This document shows, piece after piece, positions 7,246-23,050 of a DNA stretch of 23,271 bases. This stretch comes from a virus. Taxonomy: Duplodnaviria > Heunggongvirae > Uroviricota > Caudoviricetes. Position 1 is the first letter of the stretch; every line of letters begins with the position of its first letter. The translations under genes were made by a program, and so were the position numbers. The notes under the pieces are model-generated. The model was not told the origin of the DNA. It searched no databases and saw only the letters and a list, made by a program, of their open reading frames with translations. Location: the IMG/VR virus record IMGVR_UViG_2563366867_000008; one strand, 5' to 3'.

Positions 7246-7631
7246 AGTGACAGCCCCGGTAGTCAGTTTTTTAGAAAACTCACCACATGGGACGCCAATC
7301 ACAGAGGTGGTGAGACGTACAGGGTTGGCGTTACCGGAGACTACCGAACCCGGCCCGACCGAAGTCGGCCCTGTACGCCCCACCATAATTTGGGCGTAGC
7401 AATGCTCATGACACGAAAAAACCGCATGAGCGCGGTTATGCTCAGTAATCAATTTCAGGACGCCAATCCCGGCACCCGCTTTATAAGGTGCGGAGACAGT
7501 GTAACGTCCCGAAATTGCAGAATCAATATTTGGTCTTGAAATGATCATATAGCTGCTGATATCTTTAGAACTGTTCTTGGATGTTTCGGAGCCGTTTTAT
7601 GCGAAACAGCTCCCCGTTATTGATGTTGAGT

Positions 7632-16118: not shown

Positions 16119-16168
16119 ATACACCATCTAAAACGATACAATCTAGGGCATCAGTTTTGAGGTGAACA

Positions 16169-17692
16169 ATGAAACGTGCCATTTCTTACATCAGGTTTTC
16201 ATCTGAGAAGCAATCCCGAGGTGATTCATTACGCCGACAGTCTAAGATGGTTAATGACTGGCTTAAGGCTCATCCTGAGTACTACCTTGACCAAGATTTA
16301 TCTTTTCGTGATTTGGGGGTGAGTGGGTTCACTGGTAAGCACTTGAAAGGTGGCTTAGGTGACTTTTTAACCGCTATCGAGAAAGGGCTTGTTAAAGCTG
16401 GTGATACGCTCTTGATAGAATCTCTTGACCGTCTGTCACGTCAAGATGTAGACCAAGCAAGTGAGCTACTCAGAAACATTCTTCGCTCTGGTGTAGATGT
16501 GGTCACCTTGTCCGATGGTGAACATTACACAAAGGAAAGCTTAAAAGACCCGTTAGCTCTGATTAAAAGCATTTTGATAATGCAGCGGTCGCATGAGGAG
16601 AGTTTGCGTAAATCTGAACGTATCCAAGCTGCATGGGATGCAAAGAAAGAAGCTGCTAAAGCCGGTATCAAGATTTATAAGCGTTGTCCTGCATGGCTTA
16701 AGCTTAATGATGACCGTAAGACCTTCTCTGTGATACCTGAGAAGGTAGAAACTGTGAAGAGGTGCTTTCAATTACGGTTAGAGGGTAAGTCTATTTGGGA
16801 GATTGTCAGGACTCTTAATGATGAAGGTCACCAGACACTTAACCAGTACAAAGCAGGTAAGTTTGGTCAAACCTCAGTGCAAGACCTTCTGAAAAATCGC
16901 TCTGTAATTGGTTACTTCACACCTAAAGGCTGTGAGGAGATAGCTGGTTATTTCCCCCCTATCATCCCTGAGACTGATTTCTACAAAGTCCAGCAACTAT
17001 CATATTCTCGTTATGGAAGAAAGCCTGCTTCAGATAAACCATTGAGTGTGAATCTTTTCAAAGGTGTTATCCGTTGTTCTGAATGTGGTCATGCTTTGAT
17101 TATCACAGGCTTTAGCGATACAAGAAACGGGATTTATCGTTGTCCTCTTCGTAATGAAAACCGTTGTAGTGCTAAAGGACTTTCACGTAAGCAAACCGAT
17201 GGTACATTGCTTGCCCTGCTATCCCGTATAGACCGATTTGATAGCGATATGACGAATACCATAGACACACTGAAGCTACACCGTGAACACATCTCAAGCA
17301 ATATTGAAAAGCTGGTACAGCTATCACTTGAAATTGAAGACTTGTCCGCTATTACCAGCAAACTAAAACAGTTAAAAGGTGAGCTATCACAGGTTGATGC
17401 GGATATCGAGAAGGAGACACAACGCCTTAAATCTATTGATGTTGGTTGTTTGTCTGATTGTGACTTGACTACAAAGGCGGGAAGGATTGAAGCACAACTG
17501 ATAATCAAAAGTGCTGTTAAAGAGGTCATTTTAAATACTGCTAAACGTCGCTGTAAAGTAACTTTTCACAATAGTAAGTCAATCACCCTACCAATAACAG
17601 AAACCCCCTCAGAGGACGTTACAGAGGCTATACAGTCGCTTTCTGAAGTCACTGAGAGGGGGTTGATAGATGTTGATGAGGTTATCATATAG
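16169..17692 (+). CDS. Large serine recombinase (serine integrase)
   Basis: 507 aa; N-terminal resolvase catalytic motif AISYIRFSSEKQ...RQ, recombinase domain, Cys-rich zinc ribbon (CSECGH...YRCP...RC), C-terminal coiled coil; RBS GAGGTGA; candidate -10 TACAAT upstream. Confidence 0.85.
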   Translation: MKRAISYIRFSSEKQSRGDSLRRQSKMVNDWLKAHPEYYLDQDLSFRDLGVSGFTGKHLKGGLGDFLTAIEKGLVKAGDTLLIESLDRLSRQDVDQASELLRNILRSGVDVVTLSDGEHYTKESLKDPLALIKSILIMQRSHEESLRKSERIQAAWDAKKEAAKAGIKIYKRCPAWLKLNDDRKTFSVIPEKVETVKRCFQLRLEGKSIWEIVRTLNDEGHQTLNQYKAGKFGQTSVQDLLKNRSVIGYFTPKGCEEIAGYFPPIIPETDFYKVQQLSYSRYGRKPASDKPLSVNLFKGVIRCSECGHALIITGFSDTRNGIYRCPLRNENRCSAKGLSRKQTDGTLLALLSRIDRFDSDMTNTIDTLKLHREHISSNIEKLVQLSLEIEDLSAITSKLKQLKGELSQVDADIEKETQRLKSIDVGCLSDCDLTTKAGRIEAQLIIKSAVKEVILNTAKRRCKVTFHNSKSITLPITETPSEDVTEAIQSLSEVTERGLIDVDEVII

Positions 17693-17706: not shown

Positions 17707-18480
17707 TCAGAATCGCTTGTTAGGATTCACAGAAAATTTCTTCAAAGTACTACCTGTACCAGCATTATTAAGCACCTTTGAAGCTTGCGCATTAGCGGCA
17801 TCTGAGAAGGTGCTTTTTCCATTCTCAACTTTGACACTTTTACCACAATTGATACGGGCTTGAAGTTGCTCATTAGTGAGTTCACTCGTAGAGCGATTAT
17901 ATAGCTCCTGACACAGCAACATACCATTACCTAGACTTGTCGTAGTGTTACCAGTGTTCTTCTTAGAAGTTGCACCACCATCATTCGTGGTAGCAGTCTT
18001 TCCAGTTGCAGCAGAAATATCAGTCTGACCAACAATAGCTTTGAAGTTAATTTCCTGAAAAGTTAGCTGGATTCTTAGACCGTTTGAAATCCCCACATCT
18101 TTAGAGGCTTTAAAACTCGTAATAATGGAATCGTCAATTTTAATTCCGTCTTTACAGATGACCGAAATAATCTGTTTCTGGTCACGCCAGCTTTCAAGAG
18201 TGTCGATGAAGTTTTCTACTAATTGACCCTGACGAGTTAATAATAAGCTTCCTTCATAGCCAACTACAACGACACCACTAATAGTGATTGTTCTGGGTGC
18301 TCTTTGCACATTATCTGTAACGGTTTGTCCTGATTGCATGTTCTGTGTAGTCACCTGCATAGGACTATCAAATTCCATGTTTTCAGTTGCTGATAAGGTT
18401 AAGAAGGCATCTACATTATCTCTTAAGTGGAAATAGATGCCGTCTTTGCCACTATATTTGATTTGGTTAGAGTAAATCAT
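17707..18480 (-). CDS. Hypothetical protein with Thr/Gly-rich linker (possible tail-associated protein)
   Basis: 257 aa from internal ATG with RBS AAAGGGGA (ORF extends to 18501); follows the tape-measure-like gene; no domain recognised. Confidence 0.5.
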
Positions 18481-18555
18481 TAAATTCCCCTTTGATTTCA
18501 AAGGCTTAGTGTATTTTAATCATTTTTAACCAAGCCTTTGATATATAAGTGTTTT

Positions 18556-18626
18556 CTCTGTTAAGCGTGTTGTACGTAAATTCTATTTTTCAGTGTGGGT
18601 ATTAGCTTTACAGATTTCACGTAGCA
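18556..18626 (-). promoter_or_regulatory. Conserved cis-element, copy B (upstream of 264-aa gene)
   Basis: Blocks CTCTGTTAAGCGTG / TACGTAAA / GTGGGTAT / AGATTTCACGTAGCA shared with copy A at 20702-20772. Confidence 0.6.
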
Positions 18627-18637
18627 TTCGACTATTA

Positions 18638-20686
18638 TCAATCATCTTCTGGGAATGATGAACTTAATAGCGTAGCTTCTGCGTATTGGTCGTAGATATT
18701 ACTGCTAAAGGTCATAAAGCTGGTTTCATCTGGTTTAATGGCAACTTCACCACCAAGTGAAACTTTCACAGGCTCCTGAATACGTTTGCTCAAAGCACTA
18801 ATTTCATCTCTCAGGCTTTGGATATCCGTATTCGTTAATGCCGCATCTTGTCTCATGGTGATTAATTCTGGATGCTGGAAGTTAGCAAGATTCATAGCTG
18901 CACTATTAAACCAACCTTTCACATCGTCCATAGTAAATACTGGCTTAAGTCCAGATTCTTTAGCTAACTCTGGTAATTTAGCTTGTGCTTCCATTCGTTC
19001 AGGTGTAGAGGCTAGTCTTTCATAACCTGCATAGAGAGCGCTACCAGCTAATAGCATATTCCCAAGATTCAGTCTTGATGGTTTCCCATTCTTTCTATTC
19101 ACGTTATCCGCTGTAGTATCAGCAACCTGACCTAATCTTGTGATAGCAGTCATAAGCCCGTAAATACTTCTGGTTACACCAACAACTTTATTTACAGCAA
19201 TAACACCAGCCAAGACTTTTAAACTATTAATCAAGCCAGAACCTAAAGCATCAACAACTTTCTTTTGTTCATCGGTTAAACCACGATAAGCTAATGTCAC
19301 CTCATCAAAGAACGCTCGCACCTTGTAACTAATATCGGCCAGACTATCGACACCATGTGACATATCAGTCATCAAGCTACCAAGAGATTCACCAAGACTT
19401 TTACCACTTCCACCAAGAGCGTTTAAAAGCGTTGTTAAGCTTCTTGTAAAATCTTGCAGACCACTTTCAGAACCTCTGAAGATACTATCAAGCGTGGTAT
19501 TCCAAGAGTTTTTCAGGTTCCCTAATTGTGCCTGTGTACTTTCTGAAATAGCTTTCCAGCCACCTTTAGCGGTGATTTGTCTATTCAGTTCCTGAGTGAC
19601 CTTCTGAAGAGTATCGGCAGATTTTAAAGCCCCCTTCTTCATGGCATCAAATAATTCCTGTTCAGTCTTTCCGGTTGCTTTAGCGAATACCTGAACCATA
19701 CCAGGAACAGCTTCAGCTAGTTGCCCCTTAAGCTCTTCAGCCATAACCTGACCCTTACCAGCCATCTGTGATAATGCTGTCAGTGCTCGCTTAATCTCTT
19801 CTTCACTTCGACCCATCAGACGAGAATAGCCAATCATACTTCTAAAAAGTTCTTCAGAACCTTGAATACCCATAGACTCTTTAGCTGAAGCACCGAAACC
19901 AGCAAACTGTGATTGCAGTTCAGCGATATCTAAACCCGTTGTTTGAGCTAATGACTTTGTGAACTCTTTTACCTGACCTGCATCTTTATCAAATACGAAA
20001 TCAATTGAACGTTCAGCACTTGCACGCTGTAAACCAATTTCCATTACTCGCTGATAAGCTGCCAAAGCACTTTGAAAAGTGTAAATAGCCGTACCCGCTT
20101 TAATTGCACTTGAAGCTAGTACATCTAAACCATTTGAAGCATTTTCACTGTGATTATTTTTGCTGGTGGTCTTGTTAAACTTAGAAAGTGTTTCACGTAG
20201 ATTTTGATTTAACTTTGCTAACTCACGATTAAAAGCTTCGTTTCCAAGTGTCTTGGATTTACTACTTAATGCGTAAAACTGACTCTTAATGTATTTCTCG
20301 ACAATTGGGTTAAGACCTTTCAGCTTAGACATATTCGCTGAATAAGCCGCTGTGATTGCTCTGTTGCCGCTAATTCGTGGCTGTCTTGGCTGTCTAAGTG
20401 GCTTTAAAGTATCCTCAATTTCCGTTTTAATCTTAAACGCTCTAGTGTTTTTAAGACGCTGCTCAATCTTGTCAAAGGTCTTATTAAACTTCCTTTCAAG
20501 TTGCCCTAAAGAACTTGTCAGATTGCTGTCAAGTTGCTTGGTATCGACCTTAAACGCTCTATTCAAATTACGTTCAATTCTTTGTGCTGACTGCAAAGCT
20601 GCCTTTTCAACTCTTTGCAAGCCCTTAATAACGTTCTCGCTGAAGCCTAGCTCAACGATAAAACTATCAACTTTAAATTGTGCCAT
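18638..20686 (-). CDS. Phage tail tape-measure-like protein
   Basis: 682 aa, largely alpha-helical/coiled-coil; central LSQMAGKGQVMAEELKGQLAEAVPGMVQVFAKATGKTEQELFDAMKKGAL segment matches the tape-measure core motif as I remember it. Confidence 0.65.
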   Translation of the reverse strand: MAQFKVDSFIVELGFSENVIKGLQRVEKAALQSAQRIERNLNRAFKVDTKQLDSNLTSSLGQLERKFNKTFDKIEQRLKNTRAFKIKTEIEDTLKPLRQPRQPRISGNRAITAAYSANMSKLKGLNPIVEKYIKSQFYALSSKSKTLGNEAFNRELAKLNQNLRETLSKFNKTTSKNNHSENASNGLDVLASSAIKAGTAIYTFQSALAAYQRVMEIGLQRASAERSIDFVFDKDAGQVKEFTKSLAQTTGLDIAELQSQFAGFGASAKESMGIQGSEELFRSMIGYSRLMGRSEEEIKRALTALSQMAGKGQVMAEELKGQLAEAVPGMVQVFAKATGKTEQELFDAMKKGALKSADTLQKVTQELNRQITAKGGWKAISESTQAQLGNLKNSWNTTLDSIFRGSESGLQDFTRSLTTLLNALGGSGKSLGESLGSLMTDMSHGVDSLADISYKVRAFFDEVTLAYRGLTDEQKKVVDALGSGLINSLKVLAGVIAVNKVVGVTRSIYGLMTAITRLGQVADTTADNVNRKNGKPSRLNLGNMLLAGSALYAGYERLASTPERMEAQAKLPELAKESGLKPVFTMDDVKGWFNSAAMNLANFQHPELITMRQDAALTNTDIQSLRDEISALSKRIQEPVKVSLGGEVAIKPDETSFMTFSSNIYDQYAEATLLSSSFPEDD

Positions 20687-20701
20687 TGTTCATATTTCAC
20701 C

Positions 20702-20772
20702 TCTGTTAAGCGTGAGCTACGTAAAAAATAATTTTTGGTGGGTATATCTGTTCAGAAGATTTCACGTAGCAC
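20702..20772 (-). promoter_or_regulatory. Conserved cis-element, copy A (upstream of tape-measure-like gene)
   Basis: Same block order as copy B; ends 15 nt from the ATG; contains inverted repeat GCTACGT...ACGTAGC. Confidence 0.6.
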
Positions 20773-20779
20773 ACATACA

Positions 20780-20821
20780 AAAAAGGGAGAAACTACCGAA
20801 TAATATCGATAATCTCTCCCC
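20780..20821 (-). terminator. Rho-independent terminator after the 69-aa gene
   Basis: Minus strand: GGGAGA...TCTCCC stem followed by TTTTTT. Confidence 0.6.
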
Positions 20822-20869
20822 GTGTTATAGATTCGATAGAACCTATCTCATACACCCAACCAATCTTTT

Positions 20870-21079
20870 TTAATGCCTGACAAGATAATGTAGTTCCGTT
20901 TCACCTATAATTTGAGCATCGGAAGGGATACGGTCGATACACCACTTTGGAATCTTGCGTGTTTTTGGTTTGCGTGAGGTGATAATTTGATGTTTGGTTT
21001 TAATTCTTAAGGCTGGCTTAGTTTGTAACTTTAAGTTTTCACAAACAGACCGAATAGTCTCTAAACGTTCTTCAAACAT
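20870..21079 (-). CDS. Small basic protein
   Basis: 69 aa; RBS GAGGTG; Lys/Arg-rich. Confidence 0.5.
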   Translation of the reverse strand: MFEERLETIRSVCENLKLQTKPALRIKTKHQIITSRKPKTRKIPKWCIDRIPSDAQIIGETELHYLVRH

Positions 21080-21102
21080 TAATCACCTCTTTTAATTCAT
21101 AA

Positions 21103-21810
21103 TCAAAGTGCTTTGCTGTATTTCTGAGAAATCTTCGTTAACTGCTCAATATCAGCCTGCATAGCAACCTTCTTCTGCGTTTCATAGTCACTAATAATCG
21201 CTTTCATGCTATCAAGTTCTTTTTTAAGCTTTTGCTTTAACTTATCCAGTTTACCGGAATAATGCTTAGTCAAATTAGCTTCAGCTAACTGAAGAATCTC
21301 TTCATCTGTTTTATCAGTCGTCAAAATAAATTGACCAGAACCCCTTAATGCTTGTCTGACATCAATTAACCGGAACCCTTCAGGGATACTTTGAAGAACT
21401 TTAGGAACGTCTTCAATCGCTGTACCAAAACCATCATTAAAGTTTCCTTCATAATAGATAAACGGGTTTGACTTAATCTCGTAAGCAATATCATATTCTG
21501 AAGGTTTCGAGGTTTCTTCGAAGTTCTTAACCGCATCGTAAGCAATATCAAGTTTAATTCTTTGTGCTTTCAGTAGTGGGTAATATTCACGCTCAAGCTC
21601 AAGTAATGATTCAGTTTTGCATACATCAGGCATCTCTTGAGGTTCAGGAGTCACAAAGATGATTTCCTTTGGTGACATCTTTAACTCTTGCTCAAGTGCA
21701 ATTCTTTCATCGTGCTCTTTGCGCTGAATAGCGATAGCTGGATGTTCAGTCTGTGGTGACCAGTCACCGAAGCTATCAATCTTTTTACCGTTAATATATA
21801 GATTTTCCAT
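21103..21810 (-). CDS. Acidic hypothetical protein with C-terminal coiled coil
   Basis: 235 aa from internal ATG with RBS GAGGAAAA (ORF extends to 21855). Confidence 0.5.
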   Translation of the reverse strand: MENLYINGKKIDSFGDWSPQTEHPAIAIQRKEHDERIALEQELKMSPKEIIFVTPEPQEMPDVCKTESLLELEREYYPLLKAQRIKLDIAYDAVKNFEETSKPSEYDIAYEIKSNPFIYYEGNFNDGFGTAIEDVPKVLQSIPEGFRLIDVRQALRGSGQFILTTDKTDEEILQLAEANLTKHYSGKLDKLKQKLKKELDSMKAIISDYETQKKVAMQADIEQLTKISQKYSKAL

Positions 21811-22063
21811 TTCATTTTCCTCTTCTAAGTAATATTCAGTTTTTAAAAAGCACACCTGACAGCCTATCTAAACTTAGAAGAGACTTAAAAGGCGGTTTGC
21901 CAAGTATGCTTTTTAAAAGCTGAAAAAGCCCTAAACATAGGTGATTCGGATATTCATGGAATCATCCTTATCTGTGAAGGGCTTTGGAGGTTTGCTTTAT
22001 AACGTTAACGAAGTTTCAGGAAAAACTTTCTTTAAAAGTTCTGTTTAAAAACTCTTAAAGAAA

Positions 22064-22083
22064 GCCCTAATCATGATTAGGGC
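22064..22083. promoter_or_regulatory. Perfect 20-bp palindrome GCCCTAATCATGATTAGGGC (operator-like)
   Basis: Exact palindrome; related half-sites AAAGCCCT at 21925-21932, AGGGCTTT at 21979-21986 and CCCTAA/TTAGGG at 22757-22778. Confidence 0.6.
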
Positions 22084-22216
22084 AAAGCTGTAAAGGGTTC
22101 AATGAATGAATGATTAAGCACTTTTCGAGATGACCTCTCAGGTTATATAAGAGGCCATGTAGCGAAAAGCATTGCACCTTTCAGAATAACTATCCCTAGA
22201 TGTAGATGGAATTGTT

Positions 22217-22243
22217 GAAAGAAATAAGAGAGCAATTCTCTCT
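22217..22243 (-). terminator. Putative terminator after the 101-aa/25-aa operon
   Basis: Minus strand: AGAGAG-aattg-CTCTCT stem followed by TATTTCTTTC. Confidence 0.45.
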
Positions 22244-22305
22244 ATAATTAAAATTATGTCATGCTTAAGGTTATTTGTCAACAGCTTTTTAACAGATTGG
22301 TAACA

Positions 22306-22383
22306 TTAATTCTTATTTACCGTATTACCTACCCAGCAACCAACAAATAGCCCTAAAACCGTCCAGAGAATAACGAGTGTCAT
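22306..22383 (-). CDS. 25-aa hydrophobic peptide (MTLVILWTVLGLFVGCWVGNTVNKN)
   Basis: Manually translated; GAGGTG 5 nt upstream; start overlaps stop of the 101-aa gene; single predicted TM helix. Confidence 0.4.
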   Translation of the reverse strand: MTLVILWTVLGLFVGCWVGNTVNKN

Positions 22384-22688
22384 TACATCACCTCACTGTA
22401 AGGGTTTAATTCATTCTGATAGGTCAAGAATACATTCAGCTTCAATAATTGCTCCGGGCTTAAATCAAGTCGGTTGCATTCGCTTGTGATAAATCTCTTG
22501 TAGTCTGGGTCTGTTACTTCCAGTTTATGAACAAAGTCACCAAGTTTAATTTCGTTGATTATATGCTTGTCAATATACGTTGACGCTTCAAAACAATGCA
22601 TGAAATAGATATTAAAGCCCGACCTGTTCAGGTCATTAAGCCAATTCATAGTTTCTTGGTCAACCATAACTTGCATTGAATAATTCAT
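22383..22688 (-). CDS. Hypothetical protein
   Basis: 101 aa; RBS AGGAAGGA; no domain recognised. Confidence 0.5.
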   Translation of the reverse strand: MNYSMQVMVDQETMNWLNDLNRSGFNIYFMHCFEASTYIDKHIINEIKLGDFVHKLEVTDPDYKRFITSECNRLDLSPEQLLKLNVFLTYQNELNPYSEVM

Positions 22689-22834
22689 TTTTAAAATCCT
22701 TCCTGTATCGCATTCTAAGACGTTTTAACCCCTTTTTTAGACCACTTAAGGCGATTCCCTAAGTTACCCTGATTAGGGGCTTAAAATCGCTTAGAATTCG
22801 TCTGGTAAAGCCTGAGAGATATGTTTTACTGTTT

Positions 22835-23050
22835 TTAGCTCAAGTCTGAGACTAATAGCCCCATCTGGTGACCGTAGTCTTTTAACCAGCTTTGCTTAAC
22901 CGGAGCCTTCAGAGAATAGTTAGGGGCTGACAAGTGAAGATAGATATCATCTTTGCCGTGGATGCTTCCCCATCCTTCGTATAACTCAAGCAAGTTTTCA
23001 AAATAACGAAATGCTTTATTAGTCTGAAGTTGTACTGTGATAGTTTTCAT
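22835..23050 (-). CDS. Hypothetical protein, second gene of an overlapping pair
   Basis: 71 aa from ATG at 23050 preceded by GGGGTG; start overlaps upstream stop by 1 nt. Confidence 0.4.
   Translation of the reverse strand: MKTITVQLQTNKAFRYFENLLELYEGWGSIHGKDDIYLHLSAPNYSLKAPVKQSWLKDYGHQMGLLVSDLS

Follow-up and report, generated by a model that had tools for sequence, protein, structure and literature searches.

A structured minus-strand leader RNA with paralogous terminator hairpins precedes the tail genes of a recombinase-bounded Escherichia coli island

We describe a structured RNA leader in a 23,271-nucleotide (nt) stretch of viral DNA, the IMG/VR record IMGVR_UViG_2563366867_000008 (the window, taken at its whole length). 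The leader occupies a gap of about 490 base pairs (bp; 21816-22305), which separates regulatory and replication genes from the tail genes of a small island, all on the same strand. A reading made earlier from the letters without database searches (the sequence-only reading) had noted palindromes of the GCCCTAA family in this gap and had proposed that they serve a single dimeric regulator as operators, or else mark an origin or a noncoding RNA locus. The last of these options is the one supported, by a promoter, terminators, the fold and covariation: the palindromes form the stems of terminators within a structured leader RNA read from the minus strand and are neither operators nor an origin. 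Its helices are conserved and covary among relatives, including those beyond the first terminator; each relative carries at least one terminator; and the loop of the last hairpin retains a covarying complementarity to the Shine-Dalgarno (SD) region of the following gene, which encodes a protein of 236 amino acids (aa). We consider it probable that this leader acts in cis as a terminator-gated, translation-blocked control element for the tail-gene module.

Of 5426 complete E. coli genomes, 477 (about 9%) have a homologue of the gap, with 75-97% identity and no annotated feature; in E. coli ZH177 (NZ_CM125652.1, 2714602-2715153) the identity to the window is 97%. Leaders were collected from E. 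coli, E. albertii, an Escherichia sp., IMG/VR, metagenomes and Citrobacter, yielding 52 distinct sequences, one of which (L027) is identical to the window. Scanning genome contigs with the 236-aa protein gave two loci only (E. albertii and the Escherichia sp.), and a 16-mer scan of metagenomes returned mostly chance matches, which were filtered by BLAST. The relatives differ by insertions or deletions (indels) of 1, 2 and 4 nt and therefore share no conserved open reading frame (ORF). The gap is gene-free, as had been claimed; its downstream limit is set by RefSeq homologues, which start the next gene at an ATG near 21815/21810.

The leader begins at a sigma-70 promoter, P (Table 1), with a predicted transcription start at about 22245-22249. 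P is almost invariant in the 52 relatives, though the coding DNA on both sides diverges; the Citrobacter versions keep it, and conservation is unusually high in its spacer and over the 40 bp upstream. The A-rich tract upstream of P may act as an UP element. No other sigma-70-like promoter was found in the promoter scan between the first terminator, T1, and the 236-aa gene. Behind the start lies the 5' hairpin H1, whose stems in relatives (GGGAGAG/CTCTCTC, GGAAGAG/TTTTTCC and GGAGA/TCTCC) differ by GC-to-AU and AU-to-GC exchanges and by G·U pairs, and a diverged copy of the H1 module (TGAGG-stem-loop-stem-CCGAA) is duplicated once or twice in some relatives. Compared with the commoner form GAGAGCAATTCTCTC, the H1 of the window, AGAGAGAATTGCTCTCT, is exactly inverted, the hairpin having flipped as a unit. 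No pairing partner was found for the variable segment that follows, and among the relatives its type does not correlate with that of the downstream untranslated region (UTR), of the upstream leader and gene, or of the small peptide encoded upstream of P.

The conserved core domain folds into three helices. Its central hairpin (helix 3) is 98% paired, with compensatory changes in 4 of 11 pairs, and helix 2 has one compensatory pair (GC in 45 sequences, AU in 7). In variants without T1, CACCUU replaces the P1 partner and still pairs with AAGGUG, as read directly from the alignments. The perfect 20-bp palindrome GCCCTAATCATGATTAGGGC reported at 22064-22083 is indeed there and belongs to T1, which would give a P-to-T1 RNA of about 190 nt (predicted length, 189-193 nt). 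In the 52-leader alignment T1 is 100% paired with no compensatory pairs; its stem is nearly invariant, its loop measures 4-7 nt (about 50 nt in L163), and one Citrobacter-type stem, GCCCTC...GAGGGC, is compensatory. The 5' arm of the next hairpin, H-AT, is the U-tract of T1, and folding of H-AT therefore requires a transcript that continues past T1. Since this helix (helix 6) exists only past T1 and covaries (97% paired, two compensatory pairs, UA to CG in 6 sequences, several G·U pairs), the RNA beyond T1 is selected as RNA.

The second terminator, T2, contains the inverted pair AAAGCCCT...AGGGCTTT, found as described, at 21925-21985. Like T1, T2 has the form of an intrinsic terminator on the minus strand, with AAAGCCCU...AGGGCUUU followed by UUUUUCAGCUUUU. 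T2 (helix 8) is 97.5% paired, with one compensatory pair and CG to UA in 9 sequences, and its inner stem-loop is exactly removed by a 19-30-nt indel in many relatives. The two gap hairpins match at 13 of 14 positions (AAAGCCCTAAACAT against AAAGCCCTAATCAT) and have similar flanks; judged by sequence, a single terminator module is present here as two paralogous copies. A terminator hairpin of the form GCCCT...RGGGY with a T-rich tail lies between P and the gene at least once in 52 of 52 leaders. At least two are present in 36, and the 16 with one show a T1/T2 fusion (L012, L164), a core fused to T2, or replacement by a related hairpin.

Further covariation concerns the hairpin H-IR and the ribosome-binding site of the 236-aa gene. 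Compensatory changes affect 11 of the 20 pairs of H-IR (helix 10), which is 97.5% paired with many G·U pairs. Its apical loop is complementary to CUUAGAAGAG, and this loop-SD pairing (helix 11) is 88% paired, with compensatory changes in 5 of 10 pairs. The arms of H-IR fall into at least three unrelated sequence types, each of which retains loop complementarity to the SD region of the gene that follows: the loop/SD types are CUCUUCUAAG/CUUAGAAGAG, UCUAAGUGU/ACACUUAGA and UCACCUCU/AGAGGUGA, with Citrobacter pairing through G·U. Hybridization of the SD region with the upstream segment reaches a mean of -17.3 kcal/mol, as opposed to -9.3 for shuffled SD regions, and the difference holds in 96% of leaders. 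We propose that this complementarity may impose a pseudoknot-like block on ribosome binding.

Folding and covariation, one of the checks named in the sequence-only reading, both spoke for an RNA, with compensatory and G·U changes across the 52 relatives. The 190-nt RNA folds with z = -3.9, the segment from T1 through the start codon (22090-21795) with z = -8.75, and a relative with a different UTR type gives z = -6.6. RNAalifold gave -35.95 kcal/mol on the minus strand versus -17.8 on the plus strand for the P-to-T1 part, and -43.4 versus -17.3 for the whole leader. In a first alignment, G·U cells numbered 90 and A·C cells 4, a count biased by derivation of the structure on the same strand. 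The 52 leaders were then aligned by MAFFT without reference to structure, the helices of the window and the loop-SD pseudoknot were written onto this alignment, and pairs were counted. Standard pairs filled 93.4% of 4614 cells, versus 34-61% with partners slid by 1-3 columns; compensatory pairs amounted to 28 of 99, versus 5-13 in the slid controls; and the covariation score was 0.169, versus at most 0.068 in the controls.

How the leader would work can be proposed from these signals. P, near-consensus and probably constitutive, would fire into the leader, and most transcripts would end at T1, releasing the ~190-nt RNA; those escaping T1 would meet the paralogous T2. In RNA reaching the 236-aa gene, translation would be blocked too, the SD region being paired with the loop of the 27-bp hairpin. 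Tail-gene expression would need a factor that makes RNA polymerase terminator-resistant, supplied by the island or by an infecting helper phage, probably Felix O1-like. H-IR would also have to be opened or cut, with RNase III as the obvious candidate for a 27-bp stem. We infer an active, constitutive P, efficient termination at T1 and T2, and regulated read-through.

Several points weigh against this proposal. All statements on the start site, on termination efficiency and on read-through are predictions. No antiterminator came to light, and the neighbouring small proteins have no match in Pfam, NCBIfam, PHROG, PADLOC or the PDB; the AlphaFold model of the 101-aa protein encoded upstream, with a predicted local distance difference test score (pLDDT) of 59.5, is too poor to use. 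By eye, the leader shows no conserved pause element of the Q type, no boxA/boxB and no RfaH ops site. The T1 stem is almost invariant and so brings little covariation of its own, and the U-tract of the Citrobacter T1 is interrupted (AUUUCUUC), so that T1 may be weak there. The observed pairing values were reached by 0 of 500 shuffles, a statistic that overstates independence, given the close relatedness and the mosaicism of the sequences; more weight falls on the slid controls and on the strand asymmetry.

Other control devices were considered for the leader and rejected. Leader-peptide attenuation fails on GAAAGGUGcaAUG, which resembles an SD sequence with a start codon and opens an ORF of 9 aa here and of at least 22 aa elsewhere, in differing frames. 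Likeness to boxA in a boxA/boxB-like nut site is limited to some variants, the RfaH ops element is absent, and a riboswitch-type antiterminator finds no conserved alternative pairing. A retron, an omega-RNA or a bridge-RNA would come with a protein partner or an Rfam match, and neither was seen.

The closest analogue is the late control region of phage lambda, which comprises the PR' promoter, the 6S RNA (194 nt), the tR' terminator and antitermination by Q. Both have a strong, constitutive-looking sigma-70 promoter directly upstream of structural genes and, as predicted here, a terminated RNA of about 190 nt as the default product; in both, the downstream genes would be expressed only if the terminators are overridden, at the boundary of regulatory and structural modules. 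The leader would work like the lambda region without being a member of its class, membership failing on the Q protein and on recognisable signals for it. Near P, no Q-family protein was detected, the 101-aa, 75-aa and neighbouring proteins having no match in Pfam, PHROG, NCBIfam or the PDB. No Q-binding or sigma-dependent pause element was recognised in the leader; nearly all relatives have TATAGR or TATGRG after the -10 element, which lacks only the final T of the -10-like TAnnnT expected of a pause element in the first transcribed bases. Unlike the lambda region, it has tandem paralogous terminators, much more structure and a covarying translation block through the loop-SD pairing, and it belongs to a small recombinase-bounded island that carries tail genes only.

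Three further comparisons are partial. In satellite P4, immunity depends on the CI RNA, which is cut from the leader of the alpha operon and causes premature termination. The leader would have in common with P4 CI and P1/P7 C4 (RF01695) a small, abundant, structured RNA derived from a satellite or prophage leader, and termination that keeps an operon silent. Unlike C4, it has no covariance-model match in 21700-22900 even at E up to 10, the only C4 match of the window (7303-7390) lying in the neighbouring lambdoid prophage, and no complementary target sites of the seqA/seqC type were found in it. Other known leaders sequester the SD sequence, or are processed by RNase III, as in lambda N and the T7 early mRNAs. 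With these the leader shares a long, near-perfect stem directly upstream of the start codon and pairing that hides the ribosome-binding site, and the stem length suggests that RNase III may be involved; unlike in SD-sequestering leaders, the ribosome-binding site here pairs with the apical loop of the stem in a pseudoknot-like manner. As in attenuators and riboswitch platforms, the 5' leader has a structured domain with an intrinsic terminator directly behind it. In contrast to them, it has no conserved antiterminator pairing (a UAGGG able to pair with T1 exists only in the variable-region type of the window itself), no conserved leader peptide, frames being shifted by 2- and 4-nt indels, and no Rfam match. 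Indeed, Rfam 15 contains no family for the gap at gathering or permissive thresholds, the best hits being microRNA models at about one quarter of their thresholds, that is, noise.

Among alternative explanations, the one that survives best is that the ~190-nt P-to-T1 RNA is a stand-alone small RNA (sRNA) acting in trans and the rest of the gap a separate 5' UTR, an arrangement that can coexist with the cis-acting leader and that we hold to be possible, if rather unlikely. Such an sRNA could serve immunity or maintenance of the island, like P4 CI or P1 C4, or could aim at helper-phage or host mRNAs. It would have its own very strong promoter and its own predicted terminator, as well as a compact, conserved fold. 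A 20-nt segment of it is invariant in all E. coli-type copies, with 10 nt (GUGCAAUGCU) also found in Citrobacter, and in some relatives the core is fused directly to a single terminator; the variable segment could set specificity. Against this, no target was found in the island or in one Felixounavirus genome, and the variable segment does not covary with the UTR, the upstream leader or the peptide gene. The best Felixounavirus match (blastn-short) is 14 nt long and equals the best score of shuffled queries: GUGCAAUGCUUUUC, in the invariant segment, is perfectly complementary to the garuso_17 mRNA (L168, 8301-8314), which is at chance level. Neither a similar phage record nor an Rfam family, C4 included, was found for this RNA, its invariant segment is predicted to be paired rather than a free seed, and the helices that need read-through past T1 are conserved and covarying, in keeping with a cis-acting leader.

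That the island replicates from the gap, or is packaged from a pac/cos site in it, is very improbable. The gap is AT-rich with several palindromes of the TTTAAAA type, it adjoins structural genes, and a DnaD-like protein is encoded 2-3 kb away in some relatives; yet it has no iterons, the only repeats being the two-copy paralogous terminator modules, and no DnaA boxes, and its conservation follows RNA helices on one strand.

Equally improbable is a role of the RNA as antitoxin in a type I toxin-antitoxin pair. The partner would be an unannotated ORF for a 25-aa hydrophobic peptide (MTLVILWTVLGLFVGCWVGNTVNKN, 22306-22383, minus strand), with its end 24 nt before the -35 element. At this place, beside a strongly promoted RNA, all E. 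coli-type relatives and Citrobacter have an ORF for a hydrophobic peptide, the sequence of which varies. Nevertheless, the RNA runs in the same direction as the peptide gene and lies downstream of it rather than antisense to it, extended complementarity to the peptide's translation start was not seen by eye, and peptide types do not covary with those of the RNA variable region. The ORF behaves like an ordinary operon member, its ATG overlapping the stop codon of the 101-aa gene (ATGTAATG) in an arrangement typical of translational coupling.

The operator proposal of the sequence-only reading extended to two echoes of the motif outside the gap. At 22750-22790, upstream of the 101-aa gene, GGCGATT-CCCTAA...TTAGGG-(GCTTAA)-AATCGC is present as an imperfect palindrome with asymmetrically spaced outer arms. 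At the recombinase promoter, TCTAGGGCA exists (16142-16150) and reads CTAGGGC, not TTAGGGC. Neither echo is conserved: the CCCTAA/TTAGGG palindrome occurs in 0 of 12 relatives, among which the 101-aa gene has a hypervariable leader, and the recombinase site reads TCTAGGTAT, TCTAGGGGT, TCTAGGCAT or TCGCGCTAT, varying exactly at GGGC. In a scan of motif frequency, GCCCTAA was weakly enriched (5 occurrences versus 2.1 expected, with 5 of 100 shuffles reaching 5), and CCCTAA was not (9 versus 7.8, not significant). Two of the five GCCCTAA matches are the arms of one hairpin and a third is an arm of the second; the others lie in the 25-aa ORF, where relatives do not keep the motif, and inside the tape-measure gene. 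The motif is thus common only to the two hairpins inside the gap. A single dimeric regulator that binds the palindromes and works at two more places, 22750-22790 and the recombinase promoter, is extremely improbable. Palindromes do exist and GCCCTAA is mildly over-represented, but the half-sites stand at varying distances (from 4-7 nt to about 50 nt, with insertions in the loops), and changes keep pairing rather than sequence, with G·U pairs possible on one strand only. Moreover, both hairpins, situated 165-320 nt downstream of the promoter, have a U-run directly behind them on the transcribed strand, and both echo sites and the CCCTAA count fail to support such a regulator.

Table 1. Features of the leader and of the neighbouring genes in the window.
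Feature	Coordinates	Strand	Description
Promoter P	22253-22293	-	Best site of the sigma-70 consensus scan; 11/12 match plus extended -10
P, UP-like tract	22293-22282	-	A-rich
P, -35 element	22281-22276	-	TTGACA
P, TG of extended -10	22261-22260	-	Within 17-bp spacer
P, -10 element	22258-22253	-	CATAAT
5' hairpin H1	22227-22243	-	AGAGAG-AATTG-CTCTCT; scored terminator-like in the scan
Variable segment	22183-22226	-	Three main sequence types across relatives
Conserved core domain	22084-22182	-	Helices P1, P2, P3
Invariant 20-mer	22182-22163	-	GAAAGGTGCAATGCTTTTCG; in the core
Closing helix P1	partner 22090-22084	-	GAAAGGUG with CAGCUUU
Helix P2	22170-22163 with 22127-22118	-	
Central hairpin P3	22160-22128	-	
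Terminator T1	22057-22083	-	Stem of 8 bp and loop of 4 nt (the 20-bp palindrome; -10 kcal/mol), then UUUCUUU; scored terminator-like in the scan
Hairpin H-AT	22026-22064	-	A/U, about 15-17 bp, -15.8 kcal/mol
Terminator T2	21913-21985	-	AAAGCCCT...AGGGCTTT pair, -19.9 kcal/mol, optional inner stem-loop, then UUUUUCAGCUUUU
Hairpin H-IR	21835-21924	-	27-nt arms, 21924-21898 and 21861-21835
H-IR apical loop	21882-21873	-	Carries CUCUUCUAAG
SD-region partner	21829-21820	-	CUUAGAAGAG; overlaps SD GAGGAA (21822-21817) of 236-aa gene, ATG 21815 or 21810
236-aa protein	21103-21815	-	First gene after the gap
69-aa protein	20870-21079	-	Downstream operon
Tape-measure protein	18638-20686	-	Downstream operon
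Dit-like tail protein	17707-18501	-	Downstream operon
Large serine recombinase	16169-17692	+	Island edge

The 16.1-23.3 kb part of the window is the left part of an island of ~13 kb bounded by serine recombinases. The operon behind the leader spans 17707-21815 on the minus strand and comprises the 236-aa, 69-aa, tape-measure and Dit-like genes; upstream of the gap, the same strand carries the 25-aa ORF, the 101-aa gene and more small genes. In complete E. coli copies of the island, the small genes belong to no known family, with sometimes an HNH endonuclease or a DnaD-like protein, and beyond them lie a Dam methylase and a small resolvase-type recombinase. The insertion site of these copies is either yecE or the interval between tonB and yciI, and the Citrobacter island has the same gene layout. 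The tape-measure and Dit-like genes (17707-20686, minus strand) share up to 92-95% DNA identity with gp118/gp119 of Felixounavirus garuso (L156/L169), and the island has no capsid or terminase genes. By its gene content, it looks like a satellite or a tail-interfering parasite of virulent Felix O1-like phages. A literature search, by topic and by literal sequence strings, found no paper describing the island or the RNA.

The leader is a candidate new RNA family, with clear covariation and presence in about one in 11 complete E. coli genomes, where nothing is annotated, and no Rfam match or paper was found for it. It would be the control point of the tail-gene module in a compact island whose tape-measure and tail genes are nearly identical to those of virulent Felix O1-like phages; should this island be a satellite of these phages or a defence element against them, the leader is where induction would be decided. 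It would also offer a tractable model of three control layers: tandem terminators, a hairpin that re-uses a terminator U-tract, and a loop-SD pseudoknot. More speculatively, and in our view doubtfully, the ~190-nt RNA and the leader would form the central switch of a previously undescribed E. coli/Citrobacter satellite family that parasitises Felix O1-like phages. The terminated RNA would then act in trans, in immunity, helper sensing or against the helper, and a helper factor would turn termination into read-through, releasing substitute tape-measure and baseplate-hub-type proteins.

The first gene of the operon deserves a comment on its name. PGAP/RefSeq labels the 236-aa protein 'transposase' in hundreds of genomes with no model behind the name, and the protein, whose family exceeds 3000 clusters, has no match in Pfam, NCBIfam, PHROG, PADLOC or the PDB. 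A role in tail assembly rather than transposition is suggested by its location immediately before the tape-measure gene and by a C-terminus that is charged and looks helical. Among 50,697 phage records, neither this protein nor the leader showed similarity.

Three observations were made outside the leader. The leader of the 101-aa gene (22689-22834, minus strand) contains a long hairpin with 24-nt arms, which carry TTCTAAG/CTTAGAA just upstream of the SD sequence; this heptamer pair is also found in the 236-aa leader (8 occurrences versus 2.9 expected), and relatives have unrelated sequences in place of the 101-aa gene leader. A 71-nt direct repeat (18556-18626 and 20701-20771), 73% identical and with identical ends CTCTGTTAAGCGTG...GATTTCACGTAGCA, fills both intergenic gaps flanking the tape-measure gene, and could represent the edges of an exchangeable cassette or a repeated regulatory element. 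Finally, a separate lambdoid prophage occupies 1-15.7 kb of the window and carries two tRNA-Arg genes, tRNA-Met, STnc100, a C4 antisense RNA and isrK (362-876 and 7303-7491). It sits in yecE beside the island, placing two mobile elements in tandem at one gene.

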